DNA of 64,000 nucleotides from Deltaproteobacteria bacterium (lineage in GTDB: Bacteria; Desulfobacterota; Desulfarculia; Adiutricales; Adiutricaceae), in NCBI GenBank assembly GCA_031279515.1, contig JAITII010000111.1, positions 103 to 64,102 on the forward strand, written 5' to 3'. A program made the position numbers and the translations under genes. The stretch's first letter is position 1. Each line of letters begins with the position of its first letter. Shown here in pieces: positions 11,822 to 51,050 of this stretch. Below the pieces are notes generated by a model. It saw only the letters and a list, made by a program, of their open reading frames with translations. It searched no databases and was not told where the DNA came from.

Positions 11822-12757
11822 CTAAAGATAGGGATCTGCCACAAGTCCATCGTGGTCCACAGGCTCTAAGTGGAAGGTGATATCCGCCTTGGGAAAATGC
11901 TCCTGGATGCCCGAGACCACTTGCATGCCCAAGCTATGGGCCTCGTCCACAGATAAAGAGCCGTCCACCAAGAGATCTACCACGACTATCTGAAAGGGTC
12001 CAGACCTACGGGATCTAAGTTTCCTGTAACCCTTTATCCTGGGCGCGAACTGGGCTATATGTTCCCTTATCAGGGTTAGCTCCTCTTTGGTTAAGGAATG
12101 GTCCACTAAAGTGGACACAGCATCCCTAGCTAAGGCCCAACCTGTCTTGATGATGAAAAAGGAGACCACCATGGCCGCCACGGAATCGATGAAGTCTAGC
12201 TTCCAGGCGGGATTTATGAGGTTACCTAGGTGAATTATCAAAAGGGCCCCAAAAATCCCCAAAGAAGTCATAACGTCGGTGCGGAGATGCCAGCCGTCAG
12301 CAACCAAGGCCGGGGATCCTGTCCTCTTGCCAGCCTTGAAAAGAATCCTTGAGACCAGAAAGTTTACCAAGGAAGAAACGAACATGACCGCAAGGCCTAT
12401 TGTCAAAGAGGGTAATTTGTGGCCCTCCATCAGCCCTTCTATGGCTTCCTTGACAATATAGAGCCCACCTACAATGATTAAAATACCTTCAAAGAGGGCG
12501 GCTAAGTTTTCCACCTTTCCGTGGCCAAAGGGGTGATCCGGATCCGGAGGGGTATCAGAATACTTTACGGCTAAGAAGGTCAAAAAGGAGGCTAAGAGAT
12601 CCAGACAAGAATGCACCGCTTCAGAGATTATGGCCACAGAGCCAGTTATTATCCCAGCTACGAGCTTCAATACTATTAAAGTAGAGTTGGAAAGGATAGA
12701 AAAAAACGCATAGTGTGAGTTTTTGTATTCTTTCCCTTGGCTCTGGCTTTCACTCAT
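11822..12757 (-). CDS. Cation diffusion facilitator family transporter
   Basis: 311 aa with about six TM helices, metal-site motifs (EAVHSCLDLL, WHLRTDV) and a C-terminal cytoplasmic domain. Confidence 0.9.
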   Translation of the reverse strand: MSESQSQGKEYKNSHYAFFSILSNSTLIVLKLVAGIITGSVAIISEAVHSCLDLLASFLTFLAVKYSDTPPDPDHPFGHGKVENLAALFEGILIIVGGLYIVKEAIEGLMEGHKLPSLTIGLAVMFVSSLVNFLVSRILFKAGKRTGSPALVADGWHLRTDVMTSLGIFGALLIIHLGNLINPAWKLDFIDSVAAMVVSFFIIKTGWALARDAVSTLVDHSLTKEELTLIREHIAQFAPRIKGYRKLRSRRSGPFQIVVVDLLVDGSLSVDEAHSLGMQVVSGIQEHFPKADITFHLEPVDHDGLVADPYL

Positions 12758-33697: not shown

Positions 33698-34203
33698 TCC
33701 TCAAAGAGTCGCTCGCTATTTCCAGAGAATTTAGAAATTTATGGTTAGAATTAAATGAGTTTTATCGGCAAAGCATACAGTGCAAAAAATTTCAATTCTG
33801 AAAAAATAACAAAACCTAAAAATTATTCTATAAATTAAAGCAATTGAAATTTAATCTATATATTGCTGAGGAAAAATCTATTGATACAAAATATAGCATC
33901 AAGATTCATTGCCTTGAATTTCAAGGCTTCTAGCTTTGGAAAAAAAGTAATAAATCTTACCACTTGGATAATTAAGTTTCAAATATAAATAAGCTTTCCT
34001 TTCTTTTACTGGAAGTCAATGAGGCGGCTTAAAAAGCTCGCTAAGAAGCTAAAGTACCCGCAGATCAAGGATTAAAGCTAAATTTAAAGCCTTTAAATAA
34101 AATGAACCCACAAGGTACAAAATCAATATCCCTACGGCAGGGCCTGGGGATTTTAAGTCCTAAATTAAACGCCCAGCCTAGGAGATTAGATTCTAAGTTC
34201 TTC

Positions 34204-34232
34204 TTGACACGAAGATATATTTATGCTATAAA
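34204..34232 (+). promoter_or_regulatory. Candidate sigma-70 promoter of the sigma-54 activator gene
   Basis: TTGACA (34204-34209), a 17-nt spacer, then TATAAA (34227-34232). It lies inside the track's long ORF, which supports the shorter start at 34252. Confidence 0.5.
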
Positions 34233-34251
34233 ATCCTCAAGGTGGTCACGT

Positions 34252-35766
34252 ATGACGCTCGAAACTCCACAGCCAAACACGGTATCCAACCTTCAGGAAT
34301 TTCTGGAAACTTTGGCCTTCAGCCCCGATCAATTGAAACTAATGTTCGATTCCTTCCCACTAGGGGTCATAGTTACAGACGACACAGGAAGCGTTATATA
34401 CTATAACGACGCCCATTCTAGGATTGATGGGATCACCCAGAATGAAATGCTGGGTAGAAAAGAAATTGAGGCCTTGGCCCCCATCACGGGACCCAACGTG
34501 ATGTCTATCTGCCAAAAAACGGCCAGCCCAATCCTAGGCTACATCTATCCCTACATGACTTACAAGGGCAGAGTAGTAAATGCGGCTTATTGGGTTTACC
34601 CTATCTTAAGGGATAATAGGGTAACAGGGGCTATTTGCTTCACCCAACCCCTCTTAAACGAGTATAACGCAGCCAGGCCCTACTCCAAGCCCCCCCTCCA
34701 ATGGCCGGGCTCCGAGCCCATCAAGGTGCCTACCACAAAGATTGTAGGACAAGATCCGGATTTTCTGAAGGCCGTTGAAGTAATTAAAAGTAATGCCTCC
34801 AATCATTTTCCTATTCTTATCTCAGGGGAGACGGGCTCCGGTAAAGAACTTTTAGCGAAACTCACTCACCAGGCCTCCCCCAGGAGAAATAAGCCCTATC
34901 TGGCCCTAAATTGCGCGGCAATCCCCGCCAACCTCTTAGAAGGACTGCTTTTTGGAACTATGAGAGGTAGCTTCACCGGGGCGATAGATAGGCCAGGAAT
35001 GCTCTCTGAGGCCAATGGCGGTACTCTGTACTTAGATGAGCTAGACTCCATGCCCTTGGAGTTGCAACCTAAGCTCTTACGGGCCATCCAGGAAATGCGC
35101 ACCTATAGGGTGGGCTCCACTGTGCCAGTGGATCTGGACTTAAAACTCGTGGTATCCATTGGTTCATCCCCCCATGAAGCCCTTAGCTCCGGTAGGCTGA
35201 GACCTGACCTATTTTACCGCGTGGCAGTGGTCCTCGTGAACATCCCGCCCCTCCGCAAGCGCCCGAATGATTTGATGCTGCTTGCTGACTTTTTCTTAAA
35301 CAAATACAATAATCTTTTAGGAAAGCAAGCCCTGAAAATAGACCCGCCCCTCTGGGAGGTCATGGAGAAATATCACTGGCCAGGCAATATCCGAGAATTG
35401 GAGAACATGTTGGCCGGCTCCATAGCCCAGGTCACAGACGAGCTCTACATTGGCCTTAAGCATGTCCATGAACACTATTTGCACGCCTTTTCTGGGGTAT
35501 ACACTTCCGACAGGATAATTGCCGCCACAAGTGAAAGGATAATGCCAATAAAAGCCCAAGAGAGTGAAAAATCCTTTCCCTTTAGAGATCGGGAACAATT
35601 CATAACTGCCCAGGAAGAATATGAAAAAAAAGAGACCGAGCTTAGAAACTGCATAAAGCGGAACAGGGGCAATATAACCTTGGCGGCTAAAGAGAAAGGC
35701 ATCTCCCGCCAGCTTATGAGCTATAGGCTTTCAAAATATAGGATTTCCGCTAAAGACTATCGCTAA
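34252..35766 (+). CDS. Sigma-54-dependent transcriptional activator (PAS sensor, AAA+ domain, Fis-type HTH)
   Basis: The start at 34252 (MTLETPQ) is preceded by AAGGTGG. It has a PAS-like N-terminus, Walker A GETGSGKE, the sigma-54 contact loop GSFTGA, WPGNIRELEN and a C-terminal HTH (AAKEKGISRQLMSYRLSKY). Confidence 0.9.
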   Translation: MTLETPQPNTVSNLQEFLETLAFSPDQLKLMFDSFPLGVIVTDDTGSVIYYNDAHSRIDGITQNEMLGRKEIEALAPITGPNVMSICQKTASPILGYIYPYMTYKGRVVNAAYWVYPILRDNRVTGAICFTQPLLNEYNAARPYSKPPLQWPGSEPIKVPTTKIVGQDPDFLKAVEVIKSNASNHFPILISGETGSGKELLAKLTHQASPRRNKPYLALNCAAIPANLLEGLLFGTMRGSFTGAIDRPGMLSEANGGTLYLDELDSMPLELQPKLLRAIQEMRTYRVGSTVPVDLDLKLVVSIGSSPHEALSSGRLRPDLFYRVAVVLVNIPPLRKRPNDLMLLADFFLNKYNNLLGKQALKIDPPLWEVMEKYHWPGNIRELENMLAGSIAQVTDELYIGLKHVHEHYLHAFSGVYTSDRIIAATSERIMPIKAQESEKSFPFRDREQFITAQEEYEKKETELRNCIKRNRGNITLAAKEKGISRQLMSYRLSKYRISAKDYR

Positions 35767-36074: not shown

Positions 36075-37799
36075 ATGGCTTCAATTTTTATCAGACCCTT
36101 GAAGGGCCGGCAGTACTATGGTATATATGGTGCAAAGCCTACTCGCGTTAAGGATACTGTCAACAACGAGCAAAATTACTTAGGCAAAGTCTTGATACCC
36201 TCAGGTAACGTCATTTTTAATGATAAACTAGAAAATTGGATAGAAGTACATGACCTTGATATGAATTATGTTTATGAAAAGATTTTGTCTAGCGCAAAAA
36301 AATTTGACTTACCTATTAATTTCATAAACCAAAATGTCAAACAAACTCAAGATGATAAAACTTTATCTGATAATATTATCGAATAACTAGATACTACAAT
36401 GCCAAATCTTTATAATGATATCGATATCTTATTTTCCGAACAGTTTGATTTTGGGCATATATATTTGCTAGATTATCTAAGCGAATCGTTAGGGCTAACA
36501 AAAATATTAAGTGATATTTTCCCCTCCAATTGGAAACTCATTTTAACTTTAGCAGAATATTTTGCTCTTGATTGTTCACAAAGCTTAGATTGCAGTACAT
36601 GGGTTAAGAAAGCGAATACCGAGCTTAATCCACAACTTCTATATTCTCAAAGAAAAAACGGTTTATTTTCATCTATTACAAATGATTCTATTTTTAAATT
36701 TTACGAAAAATGGTCAAGTACTGTTAGGGACCGCGATTTTTTTGCCTTAGATAATACATTTCTATCAACCTATTCCGATGATATTCTTGAAGCTGAATAT
36801 GGCTATAATCGTGATAGAGAAAAATTAAAACAAATAAATCTAAGCCTCATATTTGGTGAAACTTCTGGACTTCCTTTATTTTCATCTTTGTTCCACGGCA
36901 ATATGAACGACGTAAGAACATTAAAAAAGACAATAGAACAGTTTAAGTTGATAAACCAAACTAATTATAGCATATTTATGGATAAAAACTTTTTTAGTTT
37001 AGAAAATATTAATTTCTTAACTACACATAATCCTCCGATAAAATTTACTATTTCTTTACCTCAAACAGTTGACATGTTTGAAGAGCTAATATTAGATACT
37101 CTTCCTATCAGTTCCTCAAATGATTCAGTAATAGTAACTTCATCAGGAATTTCAATGGGAGTAAGCAAAAAAATTAAATGGTATAATGGAACAGATCTAT
37201 ATGCACATGTTTATCGTAATTATCATGAAAAATTACAAGTCGAAGAGATCGTAAAATACAATCTAATCGACATGCTTAACAAAGCAACCTTAAATCCAGA
37301 ACTATATATTAATGATAAAACTTTCAACGAAGTATTGAATTTTAGAAGATCAAGCAAGACTGAAAGTGGATATACTGTAAAAATAAAGCCTGATATGCTT
37401 AGTAAAAAAACTTTAACAAGTGGATGGCTAATATTACTATCAAATTGTATCAAAGACACTAGCCAAGCAATTCGGAAATACAGGAAAAAAGATGTTGTAG
37501 AAAAAGCTTTTGATCTTTTTCAAAATCATAATGCTTTAAAAGGAATAAAAGCCAATAGCTATATAAATTTATCATCTACGGTTTTCGTATGCTTTATTTC
37601 TTTAATTTTATTGTCTGAAATCCATGATGTTATGGATACTAAAAATCTATATTCTATATATTCTATGAGAGAATTACTTGAAACTCTAAGCACTCAACGT
37701 GTTATTCATATAAAAGATAAAAAAATACTTAAACCTATAACTATAGATCAAAGAAGGTTGTTTAAACATTTTAATTGCCCTTTGCCAAATACTTCTTAG
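36075..37799 (+). mobile_element. IS1634-like (IS4-superfamily DDE) transposase gene split by a single in-frame TAA
   Basis: Track ORFs 36075-36386 and 36399-37799 are in the same frame, separated only by TAA (36384-36386) plus 4 codons. Together they give ~570 aa with the family layout: N-terminal ..NYLGKV.., DDE-like FALDNTFLSTYS, IFMDKNFFSLENINFL and YRKKDVVEKAFDLFQN. The region is very AT-rich. The element ends are not resolved. Confidence 0.7.
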
Positions 37800-38538: not shown

Positions 38539-41418
38539 ATGAATAAAATAATCATTTTACTCATATTAATGATGTCTTTATTAATTTGCAGCCATTCTTT
38601 TGCTCAAAATGACCAGCTCTTGGATGAAGCCATAGAGCAAACTACCAGTCGCCTTGAAGCTTTAAGGGACAGTTTCGGTCTGCTCCACGAGGACACCCTA
38701 AGTTCATTGGACGAACTAATAGGCCTCTACCATCAAAAGGGTCTGTGGACCACTACCCTTGCCCTGGCAGACGAACTCATAGCTATGAGAAAACTCTATA
38801 ACGGCCCAGAGCATATCCTCACCTTAAGGGCCATGGCCAGGTGCCGAGACCTTCACTTTGAACTTGCCAATTACAACCTGGCCCAAAACTTGGCTCTAGA
38901 GGTCAAAGAAGCCGGAGATAGGCTTTTGGGTGAATGGGACCCCTTTACTATAGATGCTACCTTTAAGCTCATCTTAGGCCACTATAGCCTGGGGGAGACC
39001 CTGGAGGGCTTAAGGGTCTTAGATCTTTTAAGGGACGCTCTCACAAGTAATACCTCCTTGGCTCCAAGCTTCGAGTCAATATTGAGAGCCCAATATCTTT
39101 CCGCACTGGGCCATTTTCTTCTTGGTGACTACGAAGGGGCGGGCCTATTTGTCGATGTCATTTTAGAAGATCCTTTGCTACAAGACTTTCCAGAGCTCTA
39201 TATTGAGGCTTGGGCCCTCAAAAGAAACATCCTTTACTTTTCCGCAGATTTGGAAAACTACCTCATTTTAAAGGACCAGCTTTTGAGCCCGCAAGCCGTC
39301 TATGACCCTAGCTTACCTATAGCCCTTAAAGAAAACACCATCTTTGCCGCAGAGCTTTCCGCCCTTAGGGCCCCGGAAGCCGGGGCCCTCTATCGTGATA
39401 TCTTGGCCCTAGCCCAAGATAAGCTGGGACAAAGGCATCCCATAACTTTAAACATTCTGCTATCCTACCGCTCCCACCTCTTATCCATTGGCCAAGAGGA
39501 GGGTTTGGAAATGATATCCAATATTGCCAAAGAGCTTCCCTTCTCCGAGGCCTCCTTTCCCGTAGATTTGGATCTCTTACCTGCCCTAGAGCTCATGGAA
39601 GAAGGAAACTATAGTGAGGCCTTAGGGCTTCTACAGCAGATCCTTTTCTATAAGCTAGCTATCCTTGAGCACAATAACCCCCACCTCACCTTCCTCTATA
39701 CCCTCTTGGCAGAGGCTTCCTTTAAGGCCAGCCAGAGGGAAAATAGCTTACTAATATTTAAGGCAAGGCTTTTTAGCTATCTTCAAGGAGATTACCCTCC
39801 AGAGCGCCCTAGCTTGAATCTGGAAGAGGCGGTCTTTTACGCCAAGTTAGCCTGTGAGTATACACAAGAGCGCGAGTTTGCCCAGGAGCCTAACCCCTAT
39901 TTTGTACCCACTCCCTTTGTGCTGGAAAATAGGTACCACCTCCTTGCCAGTTTGCTTCTCTATTCAGACGACAGGATGCCTGAGGCCCTATTTGCCATGG
40001 ACCTAGTTAGGACCTCTGAACTGGAGGGCTTCAAGGACCAAAAGCACAATATTGGGCTCATGACAGACCCGGAAAGGGAGATAAAAGACCTACTTGACGC
40101 CAATGTGCGCTCTTTGCGCCTCTATAACCTCCAAAGGACCTCCCATTTGCTCCAAGTAGGAGATATTTCACTAATAAGTCTCCCGATGGAGCTGCCCCAG
40201 GATTTGACCCAATCCTCTCAAAGCTTTTTCGCAGCTCTCTTGGAGAGCCTCCAGGAGGCCATGGGAAGAACCCCTAAGACACTACCCTTAGCTGCCCAAG
40301 ACGATCCGGAGGTATTGCGTTTTATCGAGGCCTTAGGCGAAGACGAAGCCCTTATCCATATCTTTCTGGCAGAGGAAAGCTCCTTTTTAGTCATTTCCAG
40401 GCCAGCGGGGGTCTATAAAGTAATGACCAAGGTCCCCAAAGAACGGTACCTGGAAGCCATAGAGGCCTTTAGGGAATCTTTGGGAAATATTGGCCTTGAG
40501 TCCTTGGTGGCCTTAGAAGAGCTCCATAGCCTAAGTATCCAAACCCTTTTAGACAAGGGCTATTTAGAGCCCGACAGCATAAGCAAGCTCTTTTTCTACC
40601 TAGATGGCCCCATGCGGCAGATCCCCATGGCCGCTCTCTATGACGGCCAAAGATTTCTGGTGGAATCCTATACTATCCAACTCTATCCCCCCAACGCCTC
40701 CAAGGCTCACATGGGACCTGTGGCCAAGGAGGCCAATATCATAGGCTTGGCTACAAGTTTACCCTACCATGGGCTAAATCCTCTTTTAGGGGCAGAATTG
40801 GAAACCTCCCTCATAGTCAAAGACAAAGACAATCCCCAGGGCCTCTTTCCCGGTACAAAGGCCATAAATAAGAGCTTTACTTACGAATTTTTAATAAATG
40901 CCCTAAAAAAGCCCCCGGACCTCATCCACATTGCCACTCATTTTCTCTATAACCCCATAGATCACCGTAATTCCAAGCTTTTAATTGGAGATGGGGATTT
41001 AAAAAGCCTTGCCACCATGGATTTGGATGCTAACTTCAATTTTGCCGGCACCCGCTTAATAGCCCTTTCCGCATGTGAAACGGACCTAGGGCCCCCTTCA
41101 GAAGACGCCAGGGAATTGGAAAGCCTGGCTAGTCTTATTGTCATCCGAGGCGGCGGCTGCGTCCTCTCCACCCTCTGGAAGATAGATGACGGGGCAACGA
41201 GAACAATCATGGAGCTTTTCTACCTAAACCTTTCTGACGGATATACCATAGCCCAAAGCCTTGCCAGGGCCCAAGTAGCCGTCATCAAAGGTCACCTTTT
41301 GGAAGCTTCTGAAAACCCTAGGGGAGATATCCTCACTAGTGCTACCAATCCCGGGCTGACATGGGATGCGCACCCCTACTTTTGGGGCCCCTTTGTGCTA
41401 AATGGCGCCTGTAATTGA
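38539..41418 (+). CDS. Secreted TPR-repeat / CHAT (caspase-like) domain protein
   Basis: 959 aa with a signal peptide (MNKIIILLILMMSLLICSHSFAQ). The N-terminal two-thirds are helical and TPR-like. The C-terminal CHAT domain has the His/Cys dyad context LIHIATHF and LIALSACETD. Confidence 0.85.
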   Translation: MNKIIILLILMMSLLICSHSFAQNDQLLDEAIEQTTSRLEALRDSFGLLHEDTLSSLDELIGLYHQKGLWTTTLALADELIAMRKLYNGPEHILTLRAMARCRDLHFELANYNLAQNLALEVKEAGDRLLGEWDPFTIDATFKLILGHYSLGETLEGLRVLDLLRDALTSNTSLAPSFESILRAQYLSALGHFLLGDYEGAGLFVDVILEDPLLQDFPELYIEAWALKRNILYFSADLENYLILKDQLLSPQAVYDPSLPIALKENTIFAAELSALRAPEAGALYRDILALAQDKLGQRHPITLNILLSYRSHLLSIGQEEGLEMISNIAKELPFSEASFPVDLDLLPALELMEEGNYSEALGLLQQILFYKLAILEHNNPHLTFLYTLLAEASFKASQRENSLLIFKARLFSYLQGDYPPERPSLNLEEAVFYAKLACEYTQEREFAQEPNPYFVPTPFVLENRYHLLASLLLYSDDRMPEALFAMDLVRTSELEGFKDQKHNIGLMTDPEREIKDLLDANVRSLRLYNLQRTSHLLQVGDISLISLPMELPQDLTQSSQSFFAALLESLQEAMGRTPKTLPLAAQDDPEVLRFIEALGEDEALIHIFLAEESSFLVISRPAGVYKVMTKVPKERYLEAIEAFRESLGNIGLESLVALEELHSLSIQTLLDKGYLEPDSISKLFFYLDGPMRQIPMAALYDGQRFLVESYTIQLYPPNASKAHMGPVAKEANIIGLATSLPYHGLNPLLGAELETSLIVKDKDNPQGLFPGTKAINKSFTYEFLINALKKPPDLIHIATHFLYNPIDHRNSKLLIGDGDLKSLATMDLDANFNFAGTRLIALSACETDLGPPSEDARELESLASLIVIRGGGCVLSTLWKIDDGATRTIMELFYLNLSDGYTIAQSLARAQVAVIKGHLLEASENPRGDILTSATNPGLTWDAHPYFWGPFVLNGACN

Positions 41419-41614: not shown

Positions 41615-41630
41615 TGGCCCTTCCTTTGCA
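41615..41630 (+). promoter_or_regulatory. Candidate sigma-54 (-24/-12) promoter TGGCCCTTCCTTTGCA upstream of mttB
   Basis: The GG and GC dinucleotides have the canonical spacing (TGGCAC-N5-TTGCA consensus; one mismatch in the -24 hexamer). It lies about 190 nt upstream of the mttB ATG. Confidence 0.4.
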
Positions 41631-41821: not shown

Positions 41822-43312
41822 ATGAGACGCGATCAATTCGCCGGTTACAACACCAGCGGAGGATTTAGGCTCCGTCCTTTCACTAAGGAGGAACTGGACC
41901 ATATCCACCGGGCGACATTGGAGGTCTTAGAGCATCAGGGCATTTTCGTCCAACACGACGAAGCCTTAGAGCTCTTTGACCGGGCCGGGGCTAGGATCAA
42001 TACCAAGACCAAAATAGTAAAGATCCCCGCCTTCTTGGTGAAAGATGCCTTGGATTCCACGCCAGAGACGGTGGTCATGCACGCCAGAGATCCCAAGCAA
42101 GATGCCGTCATCGAGTCCAACCGCGTAGCTTTCACTAACTTCGGTGAGGCCCTAAACGTTTATGACATTAATACCGGGGTACATAGGGAGACCTGCAAGC
42201 AGGATCTGGCCGACATGGCCACCATCATCGACAAGCTGGATGTAATCTCCGTGGTGGAACAGCCCGCAGGTTCCCACGACATGCCCCAGGAAATCGGGCA
42301 TCTTCACGACTACGAGGCCATCATGAACAACACCAGCAAGCACGTTGTCATGATGCCCCACAACATGGAGATTGCCGAGCTCTTGGTGCGCATGTCCGAG
42401 ATTGCCGCAAAGGCCCATTTCCCCAACGATCCGGTGGAAGACCACCGCATTTTATCCTTTTTAATCTGCCCGGTGAGCCCCTTGAGGCTCCTGGAGCCAA
42501 CCTGCGACGTCATCATCGTTGCCGCCAGAAACAACTGTGTTTGTAACGTACTTTCCATGGCTATGGCAGGCGGTTCCAGCTCCGTGCACCTGGCTGGCAC
42601 CCTGGTAACCCACAATGCCGAAGTGCTCTCGGGTATAGTACTAAGCCAGCTCGTGCGCCGCGGCGCACCCGTCATCTACGGCAGCTCCACCACAGCTTTT
42701 GACCTCCGCACCGGGGCCGCCGCCGTGGGCTCCCCTGAATTGGGGATGATAGGTGCCGCAGTGGGAGCCATGGCTCAATACTACAATCTGCCCAGCTGGA
42801 CGGCAGGTGGGTAGGCGGACAGTAAGGTTGCAGACGCTCAGGCGGCCTACGAGTGCACCATCACTGCACTCTACCCAGCCCTCGCCGGCGTCAACCTCAT
42901 CTACGGGTTGGGTATGCTGGAACTGGGAGTCACCTTCGATTACTCTCAGCTCCTTATTGGCTCTGACATAGCCGAGATGATACTTTACAGTTTGAAGGGA
43001 ATTCCGGTTACAGACGAGACTTTGGCGGTTGAGGATATCAAACAGGTAGGATCCTTTAAAGATTTCCTCACTCACAAGTCTACGATGAAGTACCTCCGTT
43101 CCCAGTCTTTTGCCCCTTACAGTGACCGCCGTATGCGCCACAATTGGCTCAAAGACGGAGGCAAGGACATGACTCAAAGGGCCCTAGAAAAGGCCAGGGT
43201 CATTTTGAACACCCACAAACCCTTGCCCATCCCAGAAGATGCCAGAAAGGCCATAAGGGAACTTATCAATAGGGAGGAAAAGGTTAGAAATCTCAACCTT
43301 TCCGCAGCCTAA
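41822..43312 (+). CDS. mttB: Trimethylamine:corrinoid methyltransferase MttB with in-frame UAG (pyrrolysine) at 42812-42814
   Basis: Track ORFs 41741-42814 and 42908-43312 share one frame and the 31 codons between them are open. The MttB-family sequence is continuous across ...YYNLPSWTAGG-[TAG]-ADSKVADAQAAYE.... AGGAGG lies 7 nt before ATG 41822. The true stop is TAA at 43310, followed by a strong terminator. A pyl cassette lies immediately downstream. Confidence 0.92.
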
Positions 43313-43334
43313 AATCCCAATTGCTAAGAATTTA

Positions 43335-43371
43335 AAAGGCGGGACGCCCTAGGGGCTTTCCGCCTTTTTTT
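43335..43371 (+). terminator. Rho-independent terminator after mttB
   Basis: AAAGGCGGGACGCCCTAGGGGCTTTCCGCCTTTTTTT: a long GC-rich stem followed by a 7-T run. Confidence 0.7.
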
Positions 43372-43442
43372 ATTAGGGGCTTTAGGGTATAATATTATAC
43401 TTAAGTTTTATGTCCTCCAATACACTCCTAAGGGAGGTGTGA

Positions 43443-44297
43443 ATGCAATTTTCCAATGACCAAATTAAACGCCTCACTGAGATGGGAGCAGCTCCAGAAG
43501 ATTTAGAAGAAGTATTTCCGGATAGCGCTTCGGCCAACAAGGCATTTCAAAAGATTGAAACTAGGCTATCTAGGAAGCTTTCAGAGGGCATAAAGAATTA
43601 CTTAAAAAATGGCTCTAGGCCAGAAGGGGCTATTTTAAAGGAAAAGCTCTCTGTGGCACTTTGTGACTTCGGGTTTTCCGAAGTGGAAACGCCCCTTATA
43701 GTCTCTAAAAAATTGTTGGAGCGCATGGGCTTAGATGATGAGAGTGCCCTAACAAAACAGATTTTCTGGCTGGATGCCAATAGGGCTATTAGACCCATGT
43801 TGGCCCCCAACCTCTATTACCTCCTGGTGGATCTCCTGCGCATAGCGCCCCACCCTGTCTCCATCTTTGAAATAGGCCCTTGCATGCGCAAGGAGAGCCA
43901 AGGCGCTCGCCACGGTGAAGAGTTTACTATGCTCAACATCGTTGAGATGGGCCTTAAAATGGAAGATAGAATGGCCAGGACCCTTGCTTTGGCCCGCTTG
44001 GTACTGGAAACCATAGGAATTCCCTTTGAAAGCTGCAAGGTGGAAGAAGAAAGTTCCACCGTCTATTCCACTACCTTGGATATAGTGAGCCCCCAGGGAC
44101 TGGAATTGGCCTCCACAGCCATGGGGCCGCACCCCTTAGATGCCCCCTGGAGGATAGATGTCCCCTGGGTGGGCCTAGGCTTTGGCATAGAGCGCCTGCT
44201 CATGGCCTTAAAGGCGCAAAAAGGGGAGACAGTAAACCTGGCGAAGGTCTCAAGGAGCCTTTCATACCTGGGCGGCTTCCGCCTGAATATTTCTTAA
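43443..44297 (+). CDS. pylSc: Pyrrolysyl-tRNA synthetase, catalytic C-terminal protein (bacterial split form)
   Basis: 284 aa with class II aaRS core motifs RPMLAPNLYYLL, IFEIGPCMRKESQG, EFTMLNIVEMG and VGLGFGIERLL, and the C-terminus SLSYLGGFRLNIS typical of PylS. The RBS is GGGAGG. Confidence 0.93.
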   Translation: MQFSNDQIKRLTEMGAAPEDLEEVFPDSASANKAFQKIETRLSRKLSEGIKNYLKNGSRPEGAILKEKLSVALCDFGFSEVETPLIVSKKLLERMGLDDESALTKQIFWLDANRAIRPMLAPNLYYLLVDLLRIAPHPVSIFEIGPCMRKESQGARHGEEFTMLNIVEMGLKMEDRMARTLALARLVLETIGIPFESCKVEEESSTVYSTTLDIVSPQGLELASTAMGPHPLDAPWRIDVPWVGLGFGIERLLMALKAQKGETVNLAKVSRSLSYLGGFRLNIS

Positions 44298-44305
44298 GGC
44301 AGAAT

Positions 44306-45193
44306 ATGACACGTCTAACCTCCGAACACCTTCTAGACGGTTTCGACGAAAGGGGTTTTTCCCAGTTCCTCTCGAAACAATTGCATACGGATATCTTCCA
44401 TCTCACTTGCCGCGCCTGGGATTTGGATCCGAAAAAACTGGCAAGTAAGTTAAAAATGAAGAAACTAGCCGCCATTAGAATAAGTTCCGGAGAAGGTACC
44501 ATCACCGGCTTTGCCGAAATTGTAGCTGAAGCGGCTTCACTTATGGGGCTCCTTGCAGAGGTCATGGAAGCCCCAGATGATGAGGGCTTTATTGAGGCGC
44601 ATAATTGGGGAGCGGACATCTTGGCGTACTCGGATGACTGGGACTTTGTGGCCCAAACAGCGGACAAAAGCCGCACTATACATAACAATCCCGCCACCAG
44701 TCGCATCTATGTCTCTAGTTTAGAATTTTTAGTGGGCACAAGTCTAAAGGGCTTAGATGTCCTGGTTTGGGGCTTGGGACCAGTGGGTTTGGGAGCAGCC
44801 TTTAGGCTTTCAGAGCTAAAAGCTAAAGTCCACCTCTACGACACGGACCAGGGTGCCCTTCTAAAGGGTGAAAAACTAATCCCTGGGGCAAGTTCCATTA
44901 AAGGCGAAGGGGCCCTTTTAGATTATCTCAAAAACTATCAAAAACCCATTATTTTCGAGGCAGTACCACAAGAGGAGCTAATAGGGTCCCTAAGCCTAGA
45001 GTCCCTCTTTGAGGGAAAGGCCCCAAGAGTAGCAGCCCCTGGGGTGCCTCTATCCTGGCCTTTTAACTGGCTTAAGGGCGAAAACGGCTCCCTTTTCCAC
45101 GAGCCCTTGATGGCAGGGACCGCCTCCATGCTAGCCGGATTATGCGTAGAAGATTATTCTCCCCAATACGGCAAGGCCTTGGAAATTTTATAA
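44306..45193 (+). CDS. pylD: Pyrrolysine biosynthesis dehydrogenase PylD
   Basis: 295 aa with the PylD-like layout: AAIRISSGEGTITGF (compare the VPVTSGNGIIGNF type), Rossmann motif VLVWGLGPVGLG and C-terminal PLMAGTASMLAGL. Confidence 0.85.
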   Translation: MTRLTSEHLLDGFDERGFSQFLSKQLHTDIFHLTCRAWDLDPKKLASKLKMKKLAAIRISSGEGTITGFAEIVAEAASLMGLLAEVMEAPDDEGFIEAHNWGADILAYSDDWDFVAQTADKSRTIHNNPATSRIYVSSLEFLVGTSLKGLDVLVWGLGPVGLGAAFRLSELKAKVHLYDTDQGALLKGEKLIPGASSIKGEGALLDYLKNYQKPIIFEAVPQEELIGSLSLESLFEGKAPRVAAPGVPLSWPFNWLKGENGSLFHEPLMAGTASMLAGLCVEDYSPQYGKALEIL

Positions 45194-45267
45194 ATAAGGG
45201 CACAAAGCGCATATTTAGATGATTTTACTTTTACTTACTTACATTCTTTGATGATGAAAATATATCT

Positions 45268-45341
45268 GGAGAGCGGATCGGATTATGATCACGGGGACTC
45301 TAAATCCCCGCAGTCGGGCGAGACACCCGGGCTCTCCGCCA
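45268..45341 (+). tRNA. pylT: tRNA-Pyl (anticodon CUA at 45300-45302), CCA encoded
   Basis: The hand-folded structure is:
- acceptor stem GGAGAGC/GCTCTCC
- one nt (G) between the acceptor and D stems
- a 5-bp D stem with a 5-nt loop (GATTA)
- a 6-bp anticodon stem CGGGGA/TCCCCG with loop CTCTAAA
- a 3-nt variable loop CAG
- T arm TCGGG-CGAGACA-CCCGG lacking the T-psi-C-type GTTC sequence
- discriminator G, then CCA
These are the known idiosyncrasies of tRNA-Pyl. Confidence 0.9.
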
Positions 45342-45354
45342 TTTTAGGTGTGTT

Positions 45355-45714
45355 ATGGTAGAAAACGTCAATACCAAGAGGGTAGCCAAGAGATACTACC
45401 GTAAAAAGAACGACCTTTTCTCACTTTTGGAAAAGATTAAGCTGTGGCCCTCCCGCTCCGGTAGACTCCACGGTATCTTGACTATAACCATACACGGAGA
45501 GATGGCCACCATCACCACCCACTGCGGAAAGACTTTTCAGGTCCGCAACTCCCGCAACTCCCGGGCAGCTAGGTGGTTGCGCAACAAGTACTATTCTGGC
45601 GCCTGCACGGCTTGCGGCGTGCCGGAATGGAAGCTGGCCAAATACGGCCAGACCTTTTTCAGCCGCAGCTACGGCGCCTATTTAAAACCCGGGGATCTAA
45701 GGTCATGCAAGTAG
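45355..45714 (+). CDS. pylSn: Pyrrolysyl-tRNA synthetase N-terminal tRNA-binding domain protein
   Basis: 119 aa. The segment LWPSRSGRLHGILTITIHGEMATITTHCGKTFQVRNSRNSRAARWLRNKYYSGACTACG resembles the archaeal PylRS N-domain (..LWMSRTGTIHKI...[24 protein letters not shown]..). It starts 13 nt after the tRNA and ends in TAG (45712-45714). Confidence 0.88.
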   Translation: MVENVNTKRVAKRYYRKKNDLFSLLEKIKLWPSRSGRLHGILTITIHGEMATITTHCGKTFQVRNSRNSRAARWLRNKYYSGACTACGVPEWKLAKYGQTFFSRSYGAYLKPGDLRSCK

Positions 45715-46760
45715 CATACAAAGACATAACTGACAAGGCCCTGGACCTTTATCCCTTGGGACATGAGGAGCTCACACGCCTTATCTTGCCTAAAGATGAA
45801 GACGAAAGGGAACTTTTGCATTCATCTGCCAGGACTCTCAGAAAACGCTTCACAGGATCACTTATTTTTACCTACGGGTTCATCTATCTATCCACCATCT
45901 GCCGCAATGACTGCAGCTTTTGCTTCTACCGCAAATCCAATGGGAAATCCCACAGGTACCGTAAGACCCATGAGGAGGTAATAAGAGCTGCCAAATCCTT
46001 AGCCGAACAGGGAGTAAACCTTATTGACCTCACCATGGGAGAGGACCCTGATGTGGAAAAGAGGAGCTACTTAGAAGACACGGCCACCCTCATCCGCGAG
46101 GTCTGTCAACACACCTCCATGCCGGTTATGATCTCCCCGGGACTTATCTCCTCTTACGGCCTTGAACTCTTCCGTGAGGCAGGGGCACTCTTCTACGCCT
46201 GTTACCAAGAGACCCATAGTCCCTCCCTCTTTGGACTCCTGCGCTGCGGGCAAAGCTATGCCGCCCGCTGGAGCGCCAAAAAAAAGGCTAAAAAGACGGG
46301 GCTTAAGGTGGAAGACGGGGTCCTCTGCGGGGTGGGCGAAAGCGTAAAGGACCTGGCTAACTCCATCCTCTCCATGAAAGAATTGGGCGCAGCCCAAGTA
46401 CGGGCCATGGCCTATGTACCACCACCCACTGGTAAAAAAGAGAACTCCTCACCTTCTAAGGCCGCCCGCCGCCGCGAGCTGGACATGATAGCCGCCTTGC
46501 GCCTAAGTTTTCCCAATGCCCTTATCCCGGCATCCTTGGATGTGGAGGGGGTAGCGGGACTTTTAGACCGCTTAAATGCCGGCGCTAACCTTATAACCTC
46601 CTTTGTCCCAGCCTCCCAAGGCCTGGCAGGTGTTGCCCAGGCAGCTTTAGACATTGAAAACGAGAGCCGCTCCCTTCATCATGTATTGCCACTTTTAGAG
46701 CAATTAGGACTTACTGCTGCAAGCCCGCAAGAATACATAGAAAAGGTGAAGAGCTTATGA
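45705..46760 (+). CDS. pylB: Methylornithine synthase PylB (radical SAM)
   Basis: The start is taken at ATG 45705 (MQVAYKDITDKALD); the track start at 45573 lies inside pylSn. Motifs are CRNDCSFCFY, LTMGEDP, MISPGL, YQETH, VEDGVLCGVGE and IPASLDVEG...RLNAGANLITS. Confidence 0.93.
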   Translation: MQVAYKDITDKALDLYPLGHEELTRLILPKDEDERELLHSSARTLRKRFTGSLIFTYGFIYLSTICRNDCSFCFYRKSNGKSHRYRKTHEEVIRAAKSLAEQGVNLIDLTMGEDPDVEKRSYLEDTATLIREVCQHTSMPVMISPGLISSYGLELFREAGALFYACYQETHSPSLFGLLRCGQSYAARWSAKKKAKKTGLKVEDGVLCGVGESVKDLANSILSMKELGAAQVRAMAYVPPPTGKKENSSPSKAARRRELDMIAALRLSFPNALIPASLDVEGVAGLLDRLNAGANLITSFVPASQGLAGVAQAALDIENESRSLHHVLPLLEQLGLTAASPQEYIEKVKSL

Positions 46761-47902
46761 CATTCACACTTGGTATTTTGGGAGGAGGCCTCCAGGGACT
46801 GGAAGCCGCCCTCATAGCCAAGCTTTCAGGTTGGAACACCGTAGTGATGGACGGGAAAGATATGGCGCCAGCGGCCAAACTGGCAACAAAATTTGTTGCC
46901 AAAAAAGCCCAGACCATTCTGGACCTAGAGAATTCTTTCCATAATTGCGATGCTATCTTGCCTGCCAATGAGAACCTTAGCTCATTGGAACTTGTGGACA
47001 AGTGGCACAAGTTGGGCTCTTCCCCACCTGTGGCCTTTGATCTTAAATCCTTTAGGATCTCTAGGGATAAAGAAAAATCCAAAAAGCTCTTCCTAGAGGC
47101 CCAAGCGCCCGTGGCGGCTAGCTATCCAGGATGCGACTTTCCTTTAATTGCCAAACCCACAGACAGAAGCGGCAGCCAAGGGGTTACGCTCATAAAAAAT
47201 AAAGAGGAACTGGAAAGATTATTCCCAGAAGGCAATACTAAAGGCTATCTTTTTGAAGAGTATTGCCCTGGACCATCATATTCACTGGAACTTACGGGAA
47301 AACCGCACAACTATAAGACCTGGGTTGCCACCTATCTGGAGATGGACAGTAGCTATGACTGCAGGGCCGTGTGGTCACCTGTGGCGGATGCGGCTTTAGA
47401 AGAGAGCTTTGCGGCAATATCTGTTGCTCTGGCAGAAAAACTGGAGCTTATTGGGCTCATGGATATTGAAGTTATAGACACACCTAAAGGCTTAATTGTT
47501 CTGGAGATAGATGCCCGCTTTCCTAGCCAGACTCCGGTGGCTGTCTACCTATCTTCGGGGGTAAACCTTTTAGCAGAACTACTCTCCCTTTTCACAAAGG
47601 ATGTCCCGCAAGAGCTACAAAAAGAGCCTATGTTTTCACTTTTGGAACACTTAGACGTCAAAAATGGACAGATGTCCCTGATGGGCGAGCATAGGATCGC
47701 CCAAGCAAGGCCCCTATCCCTCAAAGAAAATTTTTTTGGGGCACCCTTGGCCTTAACGGACATGGAAGAAGGGGACACTAGTTTTGCCGCTACTATTATT
47801 TGCAGAGCAAAGACCCAAGCTATGCTAAAGCAGCAAAGGCGAGAGATCTATGAGCGGCTAGGGTTGCACCTGGGAACCAATGTGCCCAAGGAAATCGAAT
47901 AA
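46757..47902 (+). CDS. pylC: Pyrrolysine biosynthesis ATP-grasp ligase PylC
   Basis: 381 aa with N-terminal GILGGGLQGLEAA, LPANENL, FRISRDKEKSKKLF and LEIDARFPSQTP, the last nearly identical to archaeal PylC as I recall it. It forms an ATGA overlap with the pylB stop. Confidence 0.93.
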   Translation: MTFTLGILGGGLQGLEAALIAKLSGWNTVVMDGKDMAPAAKLATKFVAKKAQTILDLENSFHNCDAILPANENLSSLELVDKWHKLGSSPPVAFDLKSFRISRDKEKSKKLFLEAQAPVAASYPGCDFPLIAKPTDRSGSQGVTLIKNKEELERLFPEGNTKGYLFEEYCPGPSYSLELTGKPHNYKTWVATYLEMDSSYDCRAVWSPVADAALEESFAAISVALAEKLELIGLMDIEVIDTPKGLIVLEIDARFPSQTPVAVYLSSGVNLLAELLSLFTKDVPQELQKEPMFSLLEHLDVKNGQMSLMGEHRIAQARPLSLKENFFGAPLALTDMEEGDTSFAATIICRAKTQAMLKQQRREIYERLGLHLGTNVPKEIE

Positions 47903-47915
47903 CCCTAAGGAGTAT

Positions 47916-47941
47916 GGGGTATGGGTAAGGGGTATGGGTAA
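47916..47941 (+). repeat. Perfect 13-bp tandem repeat (GGGGTATGGGTAA x2) forming a canonical G-quadruplex motif
   Basis: The sequence is GGGG-TAT-GGG-TAA-GGGG-TAT-GGG, read directly. It begins 14 nt after the pylC stop codon. Confidence 0.6.
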
Positions 47942-48921
47942 CATTTCTATTTTCGCATTTAATTAGATGGATATTAGAGTGCATTAAAAAATAGTATGCT
48001 CTCAAGGTGCCATCACTTTTTTATAAAGTATAGCCCTCGTAGAAGTTAAGATATTTTAAATCAAAAAAATATCGCCTCTTGTAAGCTGATTTTTTTTGGT
48101 AAATAAAATTTATCCCCCTTTTTATATAAGATACATAAAAAAATTAGGGCCATAGTGCTTTCCATTACTAGAAAGATTTTTTCTCATTGTTCTATAGATC
48201 ATAGCATTTGGAATATTTATTAAAATATTTAAAAAATACGAAAAAGGCTTAAAAAAATTTTTTATAGCATTAAATCTTTTAATAGTAGAATTTTAGCCCC
48301 TGGGGCAAGTTAAATTATTTGCCCTCTTTAGCTAGTTTATTAATCTAAAATAGGATCTCTATCCCGGCCAAGGGAGCTGGCAAGTACTCTTGGATAAGCC
48401 GGCCAGTTAAAAAAGCTCTGGGCTAGCCAGCCCCAAGAGTCTCAGGCAAAGCCGCAAAGCCTCATGGGTATGCCATGGCACAAAGACCATTTTCTGGAAT
48501 TATAACTTGGTTTTTTCTCCTTGAGCCCGGGCCTTCTAAACTACCCCCATTTTTTTATCTGTTTAATCCCTAGCTTTACCAGGGGTTTAGAAATCCTAGG
48601 CCAAAAAACTGCGAAAGGAAGCAAAATTTTTATTATACTAGAATTAGAGAAAGATTATAATTTATTAGCTTATTATGCGTAACATAACTAATGAACGCAT
48701 ACTTATAAAATTTAGCTAATAGCCTAATTAAGAAGAATTTGCCGATATATCTTTAGTTCTGAGGGCAAGAAAACTAGACTGGTCTTATCATCTTGACTTT
48801 ATCCCTATAAATGTAGATAATCGATATTTGCTTTATTCCAAATTCTAAGCTAAAAAGAGTTCCAGCTCGCCTGGAATTGCCAAGCCTAAGTCTACTTACC
48901 ATCTTTTTTCCAAGGAGGCCA

Positions 48922-48972
48922 ATGGAAAGTGCCAGGGTACACCCTAGCAGTCCAGTACAATTAAAAACATGA
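48922..48972 (+). CDS. Candidate 16-codon leader uORF (MESARVHPSSPVQLKT) translationally coupled to the EF-G paralogue
   Basis: A strong SD (AAGGAGG) lies just upstream of ATG 48922, although the spacing is short. The uORF stop TGA (48970-48972) overlaps the EF-G ATG (48969-48971) as ATGA. The EF-G ATG has no SD of its own. Confidence 0.35.
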   Translation: MESARVHPSSPVQLKT

Positions 48973-51050
48973 AAGACGTCCAGAAACAGAGAACCGTTAG
49001 TTTGATCTCCCATGGAGGGGCCGGCAAGACCAGTTTGGCCGAGGCCTTTTTATACTTTACCAAGGTTTCCAGCCGCCTAGGTTCCGTGGCGGACGGCACC
49101 AGCTGCCTGGACTTCGAGCCCGAGGAAATCAAGAGAAAGAGCTCCTTATCCACCTCCTTCCATAGCGTACCTTGGAAGGGATGCCAGATAACCTTCGCAG
49201 ACACACCGGGTGGCGAGAACTTCTTAAATGACACCCGCACGGTAATGGAGGGCACAGATGGCGCCCTGGTCCTGGTGGATGCAGTTGACATGGTCAAGGT
49301 CTCCACAGAAAAGGGTTGGGCTTTCGCCGACTACTTAAACCTCCCGCGTCTTATTGTCATCAACAAGATGGACAAGGAAAGGGCCGACTATTACAGGACC
49401 ATTGACAGCATCACGGAGAACTTCACAAGCCCCAAACCCATACCCATAGCCATTCCCATAGGCGCTGAGGACAAGTTCACCGGCACGGTGGATCTCTTGA
49501 AAAACAAGGCCTATAGCTTTGATGCTCAAGGGAAGCCCACTGAACAGCCCATAGATGGAAACTTACAACCCCTAGTGGCCCAGTGGCGGGAAAAGCTTGT
49601 GGAAACCATCAGCGAGACGGACGACGCACTCATTGAAAAATACCTGGAAGGTCAAGAAATATCAGCCGAAGAGTTGGATAAGGCCCTAAAGGAGGCTGTA
49701 AAGGCAAATAAAATCGCCCCTATCCTCCCAGCAGGCGCTCTAAAGCTCATTGGGATCTCTGGTATCTTAGAGGCTATCTTAGGGCTCCTGCCCTCTCCGG
49801 CAGCCAGAGGTCCGGTGGAAGGCCATAGCCCCAGCGATCCGGTACAGCCATTTTTAAAAGAGCCCAGCGTAGAGGCCCCTTTCTCTGCCCTGGTTATCAA
49901 GACCACTGTAGACCCCTTTGCTGGACAACTCACTATCTTCCGTATCTTTTCCGGCACTTTGGCCCCAGATAGCGGTTTTTTAAACGTCACAAGGGGTCAA
50001 AAGGAGCGCTTTGGGCAACTCTTTACCTTGGAGGGCAAGAACCAGAAGTCCATAGAGGAAGCGGGCCCAGGAGACATAGTGGCTGTGGCCAAACTCAAGG
50101 TCACCCAGACCGGAGACAGCATAACCGACGAGGCTAGCCCTGTCATCTTTAACGCCCTTCCCCCCATGGAACCTGTGGTATCCTTTGCCGTTGAGGCTAA
50201 AAACAAGGGCGATGAGGAAAAGGTCTTTGCCTCTATCAATAAAATGACCCTAGAGGACGTAACCTTGCGTCTGAACCGCAACAATCAGACCAAGGAGATG
50301 ATCCTTTCAGGTATGGGCCAGGTCCATCTGGATGCCACCCTGGAAAAGATAAAGCGCAAATACAATGTGGAGGTCATCTTAAAGGCTCCCAAGGTGGCCT
50401 ACAAGGAGACCATCAAAGGCAGGGCCAAGGTCCAAGGCAAGTATAAAAAGCAAACCGGTGGCAAAGGCCAGTATGGCGACTGCGTGATAGAGCTAGAACC
50501 CCTGCCTAGGGGAGAAGGCTTTATCTTTGAAGACAAGATTGTAGGGGGAGTCATCCCCAGGCAATTCATTCCAGCAGTGGAAAAAGGCATAGTGGAAGCC
50601 ATGGCCGGAGGCGTAGTGAGCGGTAACCCAGTTGTGGACTGTAAGGTTGCACTGGTCTTCGGCAGCTATCACGATGTGGACTCCTCAGAAATGGCCTTCA
50701 AGATAGCCGGCTCCATGGCCTTTAAAAAGGCCTTCTTAGAGTGTAAACCCACCATCTTGGAACCCATCATGCTCTTGACTGTCACCGTCCCCGATGAGTT
50801 CATGGGTGATGTTATGGGTGATATCTCTAGCCGCAGGGGCAAACTATTAGGCACCGAAAGCCACGGGAAAAAGCAAGTCATAAATGCCCATGTACCTCAA
50901 ATGGAGCTCTTGACCTATTCACCGGTACTCACTTCCATGACAGGTGGTCGCGGCTCCTTTTCCCTGGAATTTGCCCACTATGACGAAGCGCCGGCACCGG
51001 TACGAGACAAGGTTATCTCCGAATATAAGCCCCAGGAGGAAAAGGAATAG
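48969..51050 (+). CDS. Elongation factor G family GTPase (EF-G paralogue)
   Basis: 693 aa with G1 SHGGAGKTS (not the canonical AHIDAGKT), G3 DTPGGENF and G4 INKMDK. EF-G domains II-V are recognisable (..GQVHLD.., ..YKKQTGGKGQYGD.., ..HDVDSSEMAFK..). Confidence 0.9.
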   Translation: MKDVQKQRTVSLISHGGAGKTSLAEAFLYFTKVSSRLGSVADGTSCLDFEPEEIKRKSSLSTSFHSVPWKGCQITFADTPGGENFLNDTRTVMEGTDGALVLVDAVDMVKVSTEKGWAFADYLNLPRLIVINKMDKERADYYRTIDSITENFTSPKPIPIAIPIGAEDKFTGTVDLLKNKAYSFDAQGKPTEQPIDGNLQPLVAQWREKLVETISETDDALIEKYLEGQEISAEELDKALKEAVKANKIAPILPAGALKLIGISGILEAILGLLPSPAARGPVEGHSPSDPVQPFLKEPSVEAPFSALVIKTTVDPFAGQLTIFRIFSGTLAPDSGFLNVTRGQKERFGQLFTLEGKNQKSIEEAGPGDIVAVAKLKVTQTGDSITDEASPVIFNALPPMEPVVSFAVEAKNKGDEEKVFASINKMTLEDVTLRLNRNNQTKEMILSGMGQVHLDATLEKIKRKYNVEVILKAPKVAYKETIKGRAKVQGKYKKQTGGKGQYGDCVIELEPLPRGEGFIFEDKIVGGVIPRQFIPAVEKGIVEAMAGGVVSGNPVVDCKVALVFGSYHDVDSSEMAFKIAGSMAFKKAFLECKPTILEPIMLLTVTVPDEFMGDVMGDISSRRGKLLGTESHGKKQVINAHVPQMELLTYSPVLTSMTGGRGSFSLEFAHYDEAPAPVRDKVISEYKPQEEKE

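Follow-up and report, generated by a model that had tools for sequence, protein, structure and literature searches.

The pyrrolysine gene cluster and its products

The 64,000-nt stretch of deltaproteobacterial DNA analysed here (contig JAITII010000111.1; the window, below) contains a pyrrolysine (Pyl) gene cluster, the six parts of which all lie on the forward strand in the order pylSc-pylD-pylT-pylSn-pylB-pylC, as read from the list of open reading frames (ORFs) and the sequence. The parts are tightly packed: 8 nt separate the pylSc stop codon (ending at 44297) from the pylD ATG (44306), 13 nt containing an AGGTG element lie between the CCA end of the tRNA gene (45341) and the pylSn ATG (45355), pylSn (end 45714) and pylB (ATG 45705) overlap by 10 nt, and pylB (end 46760) and pylC (ATG 46757) share a 4-nt ATGA overlap. 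According to the ORF list, all five protein-coding genes are full length and free of frameshifts. A preliminary description of the locus had reported this layout, and its coordinates, its placement of all parts on a single strand and its gap and overlap lengths proved exact; its further claim, that the cassette is complete, intact and of the bacterial type with a split PylS, holds as well.

Proteins were named with NCBIfam equivalog models and their curated cut-offs, Pfam domains and comparison with the PDB. Four of the five assignments predicted in the preliminary description were upheld above the NCBIfam cut-offs: PylSc (261.2 bits, cut-off 178), PylSn (121.4 bits, cut-off 51), PylB (386.9 bits, cut-off 348.2) and PylC (296.5 bits, cut-off 248.3). 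The fifth, PylD, fell below its NCBIfam cut-off but above that of Pfam. The closest solved structures to PylSc are those of Desulfitobacterium hafniense PylSc (3DSQ/2ZNI, E 4.5e-68), with which its segments RPMLAPNLY, EFTMLN and GLGFGIERL align. PylSn aligns to the N-terminal domain of Methanosarcina mazei pyrrolysyl-tRNA synthetase (PylRS; PDB 5UD5, E 7.5e-9), including one His and three Cys that match a His and Cys residues of that domain which we take to be zinc ligands, and its N-terminal M-V-E start is common to four related loci (L008, L011, L012 and L014). The PylB translation holds a CxxxCxxC motif in the form CRNDCSFC. GenBank MDR2461070.1, an entry derived from a deltaproteobacterial metagenome-assembled genome (MAG), matches the window PylSc at 100% identity and already carries the name pyrrolysine--tRNA(Pyl) ligase large subunit.

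PylD is the divergent member of the set. TIGR03911 is its best family by far (E 4e-37) despite the low score, the Pfam domain PylD_N passes its threshold (50 bits, cut-off 27), and residues 51-277 match the M. barkeri PylD structures 4J43/4Q39 at E 1e-14, with a Rossmann-type glycine motif, GLGPVG, aligned to 4J43. The PylD proteins of the whole clade to which the window belongs are similarly divergent, at about 28-34% identity to other bacterial PylD, and PGAP naming leaves the window's protein (LBE38_09925) as a hypothetical protein in GenBank. The parts are a genuine, complete bacterial pyrrolysine gene set, far beyond what chance would assemble. From these genes, the cassette is predicted to support pyrrolysine synthesis, tRNA charging and UAG read-through.

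A tRNA-Pyl gene within the cluster

The pylT gene folds as a cloverleaf at -33.1 kcal/mol (z = -2.55), with an acceptor stem of 7 bp, a single base between it and the D stem, a short D arm with a short D loop, a 6-bp anticodon stem, a CUCUAAA anticodon loop, a 3-nt variable loop and a T loop that lacks T-psi-C. General tools passed it over: ARAGORN reported zero tRNAs in the 64-kb window, pylT included, and with Rfam no family exceeded its threshold at pylT, while a search of 351 nt with E allowed to reach 10 still returned no tRNA. We rejected these misses as evidence against the gene because a dedicated covariance model, R1, built from 26 tRNA-Pyl genes all taken from lineages outside that of the window, scores 81.6 bits (E 2.7e-16) at 45268-45338, its sole match in the 64 kb. 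Escape from general tRNA finders is a property of tRNA-Pyl. The expectation that pylT would fold and score as a tRNA-Pyl was thus confirmed.

Comparative evidence agrees. Using tRNA-Pyl genes gathered beside pyl genes in 80 other genomes, we aligned 35 distinct sequences, in which cloverleaf pairing was kept in 98.3% of cells and compensatory (two-sided) changes occurred at 12 of 22 pairs; neither shuffles nor slid registers came near this pairing support.

A related locus, L014 (Gx485_bin40), has two different pylT copies (4866-4934 and 5401-5469), which differ in the anticodon stem and D loop and are separated by about 470 nt containing some ten tandem units of ~20 nt (CAAGGCCGGATCCCCAGTCT-like). 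The pair may be the trace of a local duplication, or may represent two tRNA-Pyl species in one organism.

Table 1. Coordinates of the pyrrolysine cassette and associated features in the window
Feature	Position	Strand	Description
sigma-54-dependent activator	34102..35766	+	PAS sensor, AAA+, HTH_8; Pfam Sigma54_activat 173 bits
IS1634-family transposase	36399..37799	+	NF033559 173 bits, cut-off 100
TPR-CHAT protein	38539..41418	+	Pfam CHAT 148 bits
sigma-54-type -24/-12 box (TGGCCCTTCCTTTGCA)	41615..41630	+	~190 nt 5' of mttB
mttB, trimethylamine:corrinoid methyltransferase	41822..43312	+	in-frame TAG 42812-42814, codon 331; TIGR02369
PYLIS-like element	42812..42911	+	from mttB UAG; Rfam RF02510 PYLIS_3
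intrinsic terminator after mttB	43334..43372	+	hairpin + U-run; fold and terminator scan
TATAAT hexamer, candidate -10 box	43388..43393	+	perfect; 50 nt 5' of pylSc; no good -35
pylSc	43443..44297	+	catalytic subunit of PylRS; TIGR02367
pylD	44306..45193	+	3-methylornithyl-N6-lysine dehydrogenase, divergent; PF21455 PylD_N
pylD-pylT spacer	45194..45267	+	74 nt, 27% GC, unstructured, fold z = +0.66
pylT, tRNA-Pyl	45268..45341	+	anticodon CUA, CCA encoded, discriminator G; 74 nt
pylSn	45355..45714	+	tRNA-binding small subunit of PylRS; TIGR03912
pylB	45705..46760	+	radical-SAM methylornithine synthase; TIGR03910
pylC	46757..47902	+	ATP-grasp 3-methylornithine--lysine ligase; TIGR03909
stand-alone EF-G	48969..51050	+	NF009381 868 bits; synteny marker

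The gene order is recurrent and restricted to one group

Scanning GTDB species representatives yielded at least 587 genomes with a PylSc relative, and the best 80 loci were annotated by tblastn and a tRNA scan; 37 of these hold all six pyl parts. The commonest complete order is T-Sc-B-C-D-Sn (23/37), followed by that of the window, Sc-D-T-Sn-B-C (5/37, counting L014 with its two pylT), and T-Sn-Sc-B-C-D (4/37), while the remaining five loci each have an order of their own, so that the 80 loci comprise at least nine different complete arrangements. The five loci that share the window's order (L004, L008, L011, L012 and L014) are five GTDB species representatives, all termite-gut MAGs, and every one of them has mttB upstream. 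Canonical clusters begin with pylT and/or pylSn and keep pylB-pylC-pylD contiguous after pylSc, a pattern from which the window departs. A pylT that is not the first gene was also seen in three other lineages (L056, L071 and L080).

Earlier literature gives the usual bacterial orders as pylTScBCDSn or pylSnScBCD and notes that clusters can be interrupted (PMC3941956); a later survey classed PylRS by domain arrangement (PylSn + PylSc, fusion, delta-PylSn) and counted Pyl-encoding genomes, with gene order not discussed (PMC9630628). Our literature searches found no paper describing the Sc-D-T-Sn-B-C order, or Pyl in Adiutrix. The order had been called non-canonical, and it does differ from both usual orders of PMC3941956 and from 27 of the 37 complete loci. 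Its novelty had been overstated, as the sequence is already in GenBank under a fitting name (MDR2461070.1) and the order occurs in five other species-level MAGs. The comparison of synteny therefore leaves an order that is real and unlike the usual ones, and that is not unique but shared by five relatives: it is recurrent and restricted to one group. The novelty lies in a clade-specific and undescribed permutation of the genes, with a mid-operon tRNA and a divergent PylD.

Since the source is a metagenome-assembled genome, an artefact of assembly or binning, with a chimeric contig as the origin of the order, has to be considered. We regard it as practically negligible: the identical order appears in six independently assembled genomes, an independent Logan read-set assembly (L003) repeats locus L002, and the junctions themselves are tight, the Sn-B and B-C frames overlapping and the Sc-D and T-Sn neighbours lying 8 and 13 nt apart.

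A likely client gene upstream of the cassette

Directly upstream of the cassette lies mttB, interrupted by an in-frame TAG. The TIGR02369 profile runs through the interruption, with positions 2-313 matched ahead of the TAG (423 bits) and 315-468 beyond it (208 bits), and Pfam MTTB matches both halves. The UAG sits at the pyrrolysine position of the family, a ribosome-binding site (AAGGAGG) precedes the ATG at 41822, and from the UAG onward a PYLIS-like element matches PYLIS_3 at full length (62.7 bits, gathering score 38, E 2e-10). Linkage of mttB to the pyl cluster is kept in all six genomes with the window's order. It is thus likely, judging from the sequence, that mttB is the client gene of the cassette, its UAG being read as pyrrolysine at codon 331.

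The region 5' of mttB contains a sigma-54-type box with one mismatch to TGGCAC-N5-TTGCW. Such a box also occurs 5' of mttB in L002 (2893), L008 (7589) and L014 (408), in spacers that are otherwise divergent and unalignable; in the six loci, none was found ahead of pylSc, of pylT or of pylSn. Orthologs of the sigma-54-dependent activator stand upstream of mttB in relatives as well, at 72% (L002/L004) and 67% (L008) identity, and we infer that this PAS-domain activator regulates mttB. Downstream, the mttB terminator (-23.4 kcal/mol, z = -4.23, 0/200 shuffles as stable) is followed by U7, which together with the sigma-54 box points to mttB as a transcription unit of its own under sigma-54 control.

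The same region bears on a different reading, in which the cluster is decaying or non-functional, its rearrangement and divergent PylD reflect lost selection and the UAG in mttB does no more than end translation. Such decay would agree with a PylD that falls under the equivalog cut-off and is hypothetical by PGAP, with insertion sequence (IS) elements and a degraded IS4 fragment in the window, and with intergenic DNA that is AT-rich compared with that of relatives. However, MttB is 83-90% identical to its orthologs on both sides of the TAG, which argues for selection on the read-through product, and the five pyl ORFs are full length without frameshifts. Four of the five proteins score above their equivalog cut-offs; the GLGPVG motif of PylD, the His and three Cys of PylSn and the CxxxCxxC motif of PylB are all kept; the tRNA stems stay paired through compensatory changes across the clade; and gene order and overlaps are preserved over PylSc identities of 57-66%. 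We therefore consider decay very improbable.

Host lineage and the question of transfer

Apart from the cassette, the window is ordinary chromosome, with era, a Mur ligase gene, a trp operon, F1 ATP synthase genes and a stand-alone EF-G gene. The nearest PylSc relatives, at 57-66% identity, come from Deltaproteobacteria MAGs, Candidatus Adiutrix MAGs and strain Smac51, and the beta subunit of ATP synthase (AtpD) is 87-91% identical to that of Deltaproteobacteria MAGs and 85% identical to that of Candidatus Adiutrix intracellularis and Adiutrix sp.; the nearest relatives of PylSc, PylB, PylD and AtpD thus belong to the same Adiutrix-related lineage. In neighbour-joining trees of both PylSc and PylB, the six genomes with the window's order form one clade, the sister of which is the Adiutrix clade with the order T-Sn-Sc-B-C, and the next group out is the Desulfovibrionales with T-Sn-Sc-B-C-D. 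The G+C content (GC) of the pyl genes is 48-53%, and 50-70% at third codon positions (GC3), values that fall inside those shown by the trp and atp genes nearby.

The preliminary description had instead taken the cassette for an acquired, transferable module of genetic-code expansion, pointing to an IS1634-like element, a CHAT gene and AT-rich DNA around it; the reading weighed here is that of a recent arrival with such mobile DNA. Both genes are real, as their profile scores confirm (Table 1). The IS1634 transposase, 3.6 kb upstream, stands out as the one gene close to the cassette that is clearly foreign (GC 28.6% and GC3 20.8%, against 44-56% GC in other genes), 1.07 kb of ORF-free DNA with 35% GC follows pylC, and the long-term history of Pyl systems is believed to include moves across domains and phyla (PMC3941956; PMC9630628). 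Yet the IS1634 and CHAT genes lie between the activator and mttB rather than around the cassette, and they do so in the window only: the transposase has no match in any fetched locus, L002, L004 and L008 included, the CHAT gene has no tblastn match in any related locus, and the relatives without them keep activator, mttB and pyl genes together. Because it lies upstream of mttB, the IS1634 element is not a boundary of the cassette, and no second IS was found among the ORFs scanned past the other side, terminal repeats not having been searched for. Where a mobile cassette should have foreign composition, mobile elements at both ends and a discordant phylogeny, we found a single IS, upstream of mttB only, together with GC and GC3 like those of the trp and atp genes and Adiutrix-related relatives for PylSc, PylB, PylD and AtpD alike.

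The downstream side agrees with this. An EF-G gene starts about 1 kb after pylC, and a 68% identical copy lies 3' of the pyl cluster in the complete Smac51 genome (L001/L010; L001 15431-17506), a synteny that speaks against recent transfer; no EF-G was found near the pyl genes in the other 78 loci. The EF-G gene is probably a matter of lineage synteny and not of a functional link to Pyl. With host-like composition, shared flanks and congruent lineages of PylSc, PylB and AtpD, the phylogenetic comparison proposed as a check for horizontal transfer lent no support to a recent event, and we see only a slight chance that the cassette is a recent arrival.

With 47 bits, well short of the cut-off, the TPR-CHAT protein also weakly matched Csx29, a CRISPR-associated protease of type III-E.

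How the order could have arisen

On the simplest reading, we infer, the order would have arisen once, in the ancestor of the subclade, and descended vertically from there. From a starting layout of T-Sn-Sc-B-C-D, one tandem duplication followed by complementary losses could yield Sc-D-T-Sn-B-C in a single event; two separate block moves would also give it. Tandem duplication and random loss is a route better known from mitochondrial genomes, and we put it forward for the pyl cluster as a hypothesis.

Proposed transcription of the cassette and release of the tRNA

A scheme for the working of the locus can be proposed from its layout. The activator would turn on mttB upon a signal, perhaps the availability of methylamines. 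The genes from pylSc to pylC would be transcribed together, starting at a promoter within the 130 nt between mttB and pylSc. From this transcript tRNA-Pyl would be released, with RNase P cutting the 5' end and ordinary processing trimming the 3' end. Its excision would leave a pylSc-pylD piece and a pylSn-pylB-pylC piece, the latter keeping a 13-nt leader with a ribosome-binding site (AGGTG). PylB, PylC and PylD would then build pyrrolysine from two lysines, and PylSc together with PylSn would charge tRNA-Pyl, which would decode the mttB UAG. The overlapping stops and starts in pylSn-pylB-pylC suggest translational coupling. By scanning and folding, no terminator was detected inside the pyl block, including the pylD-pylT and pylT-pylSn spacers, and L002, with a PylSc that shares just 66% identity, has the 13-nt gap between pylT and pylSn too. 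That the tRNA is cut out of a polycistronic RNA, one of two options suggested earlier for this locus, is plausible.

Alternatively, pylT and pylSn-pylB-pylC could be transcribed from an internal promoter in the 74-nt pylD-pylT spacer. This spacer is AT-rich and unstructured, a weak hexamer, GAAAAT, ends 7 nt ahead of the tRNA 5' end, and the spacers around pylT are longer in relatives. On the other hand, the promoter scan reports no promoter-like site there, the equivalent spacer of L002 is 81% GC and has no AT-rich stretch, and no terminator follows pylD. Counts from the sigma-70 promoter and terminator scan were no higher than those from shuffled sequence, and the scan carries little weight either way. 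We judge an internal promoter unlikely on balance, though far from negligible.

A more far-reaching proposal would make the mid-operon pylT, 13 nt before pylSn, a functional device, as opposed to a neutral rearrangement, that splits the RNA into pieces of differing stability or translation, and would derive the order from tandem duplication and random loss. If that were true, excision of pylT would tie the amounts of the tRNA-binding subunit and of the biosynthetic enzymes to the amount of tRNA. In this combined form the proposal seems to us doubtful, and we hold it at low odds.

All things considered, we place at roughly 85% the reading in which the DNA of the window belongs to the core chromosome of an uncultured, Candidatus Adiutrix-related deltaproteobacterium from the termite gut, with a complete Pyl system beside its client mttB, organised as a single-transcript operon in an order inherited vertically. 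Several findings weigh against parts of it. First, PylD reaches only 127.8 bits with TIGR03911, under the NCBIfam equivalog cut-off of 150.05. Second, co-transcription and tRNA processing are deduced from gene spacing; the low-weight scan for two-hexamer sigma-70 promoters found none before pylSc or pylT and left the TATAAT at 43388 unreported, and the pylT-pylSn spacer measures 198-925 nt in the Gx-type relatives L008, L011, L012 and L014, where there is therefore room for separate promoters. Third, no cognate corrinoid protein was found among the annotated window ORFs, about nine ORFs of at least 150 aa having been left unscanned. Fourth, the spacers of the six loci hold no convincing relics of lost pyl copies (best E 0.006, from a tiny database), which would have given direct support to the route by duplication and loss. 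Finally, TAG ends about 13-15 of the 48 window ORFs (~30%), so the organism has not purged it. An unpurged TAG fits conditional use of the Pyl system, which Prat and colleagues are said to have described in 2012 for Acetohalobium.

Further observations

On JGI metagenome contigs (L086, L088 and L090-L093), pylC and pylD were seen as pairs standing alone, further pyl genes being absent from the surrounding sequence of up to 10 kb. The PylD of these pairs is about 38-41% identical to that of the window, and the PylC of L088 is 52% identical to Smac51 PylC. The sister Adiutrix clade, whose T-Sn-Sc-B-C clusters lack pylD, may have this gene in such pairs, in which case the sister genomes would carry two pylC genes. 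A second PylD-like protein, P0131 (LBE38_02250; 257 aa), belongs to the same MAG by its locus-tag prefix and lies outside the window on a 51,115-bp contig; it shares 47% identity with the window PylD and is missing about 40 residues at its N-terminus. The protein may belong to a second pyl locus; alternatively, its contig could come from a related strain by mis-binning. A metagenome scan with PylD returned only the isolated pylC-pylD pairs, and the contig of this second paralog was not among the matches.

The window spacers 43313-43442, 45194-45267 and 47903-48968 have 27-41% GC, and the equivalent spacers of the closest relative, L002 (4661-4937 and 6684-6809), have 81-87%; the genome of the window seems to have shifted strongly towards AT in its non-coding DNA. 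Directly 3' of the pylC stop, at 47903-47945, are short G-rich direct repeats (GGGGTATGGGTAAGGGGTATGGGTAA), which fold no better than shuffled sequence (z = 0.10).

Two further candidates for TAG-interrupted genes were set aside. The only family-continuous case among the other in-frame TAG genes of the window is an IS4-family transposase fragment (21829-22692, forward strand; TAG at 22279-22281), which matches its profile at positions 137-253 and 250-331, lacks the N-terminal third and is preceded by a frame full of stops. Pyrrolysine-containing transposases are on record (as cited in PMC1976440). The missing N-terminus and the upstream stops mark the fragment as probably a decayed copy or pseudogene. 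The pair at 11822/10754 consists of two separate genes, for a cation efflux protein and TsaD, and not of one interrupted gene.

Significance and comparison with known systems

The cassette belongs fully to the known bacterial pyrrolysine system, and the understanding of how Pyl works is unchanged by it: the finding is a quirk of one lineage, not a new mechanism. It adds the Candidatus Adiutrix-related termite-gut lineage to the bacteria that apparently use pyrrolysine, and points to trimethylamine use under sigma-54 control in this lineage. It also indicates that bacterial pyl order is more fluid than the two textbook layouts, and provides in the rearranged layout a clean shared derived character of one subclade. 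As the divergent PylD evades NCBI automatic naming, Pyl-capable genomes of the lineage may be under-called. In addition, the clade offers new split PylRS/tRNA-Pyl pairs for genetic-code expansion.

In Methanosarcina, the pyl operon adjoins methylamine methyltransferase genes (PMC11764691). The archaeal pylTSBCD cluster shares with the window the pathway and the decoding logic, but has a single fused PylS and the order T-S-B-C-D. The D. hafniense-type cluster (pylT-pylSc-pylB-pylC-pylD-pylSn) has the same six parts as the window, including the split PylS, and a tRNA-Pyl of the same unusual architecture; there pylT comes first, whereas in the window pylD follows pylSc, and pylT and pylSn stand mid-cluster.

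The Desulfovibrionales (Bilophila wadsworthia, Desulfovibrio, Mailhella), which the trees of PylSc and of PylB both place as the nearest outgroup and whose PylSc shares about 45-50% identity with that of the window, have the cluster pylT-pylSn-pylSc-pylB-pylC-pylD. They resemble the window in placing pylSn after pylT and pylC after pylB, and differ from it by the permutation of two blocks and by the mttB fused upstream in the window's clade. The Adiutrix clade (Smac51 and Candidatus Adiutrix sp. MAGs), with PylSc 57-62% identical to that of the window, has pylT-pylSn-pylSc-pylB-pylC; Smac51 likewise has a downstream EF-G and a sigma-54 activator nearby, but the clade has no pylD within 10 kb, begins with pylT and pylSn, and does not have mttB adjacent.

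For a tRNA gene within a protein operon, a parallel is the thrU-tyrU-glyT-thrT-tufB operon of E. coli, in which tRNAs are co-transcribed with a protein gene and freed by RNase P together with 3' processing. In that operon the tRNA genes come ahead of the ORF, whereas the tRNA of the window has ORFs on both sides, the next start codon following after 13 nt.

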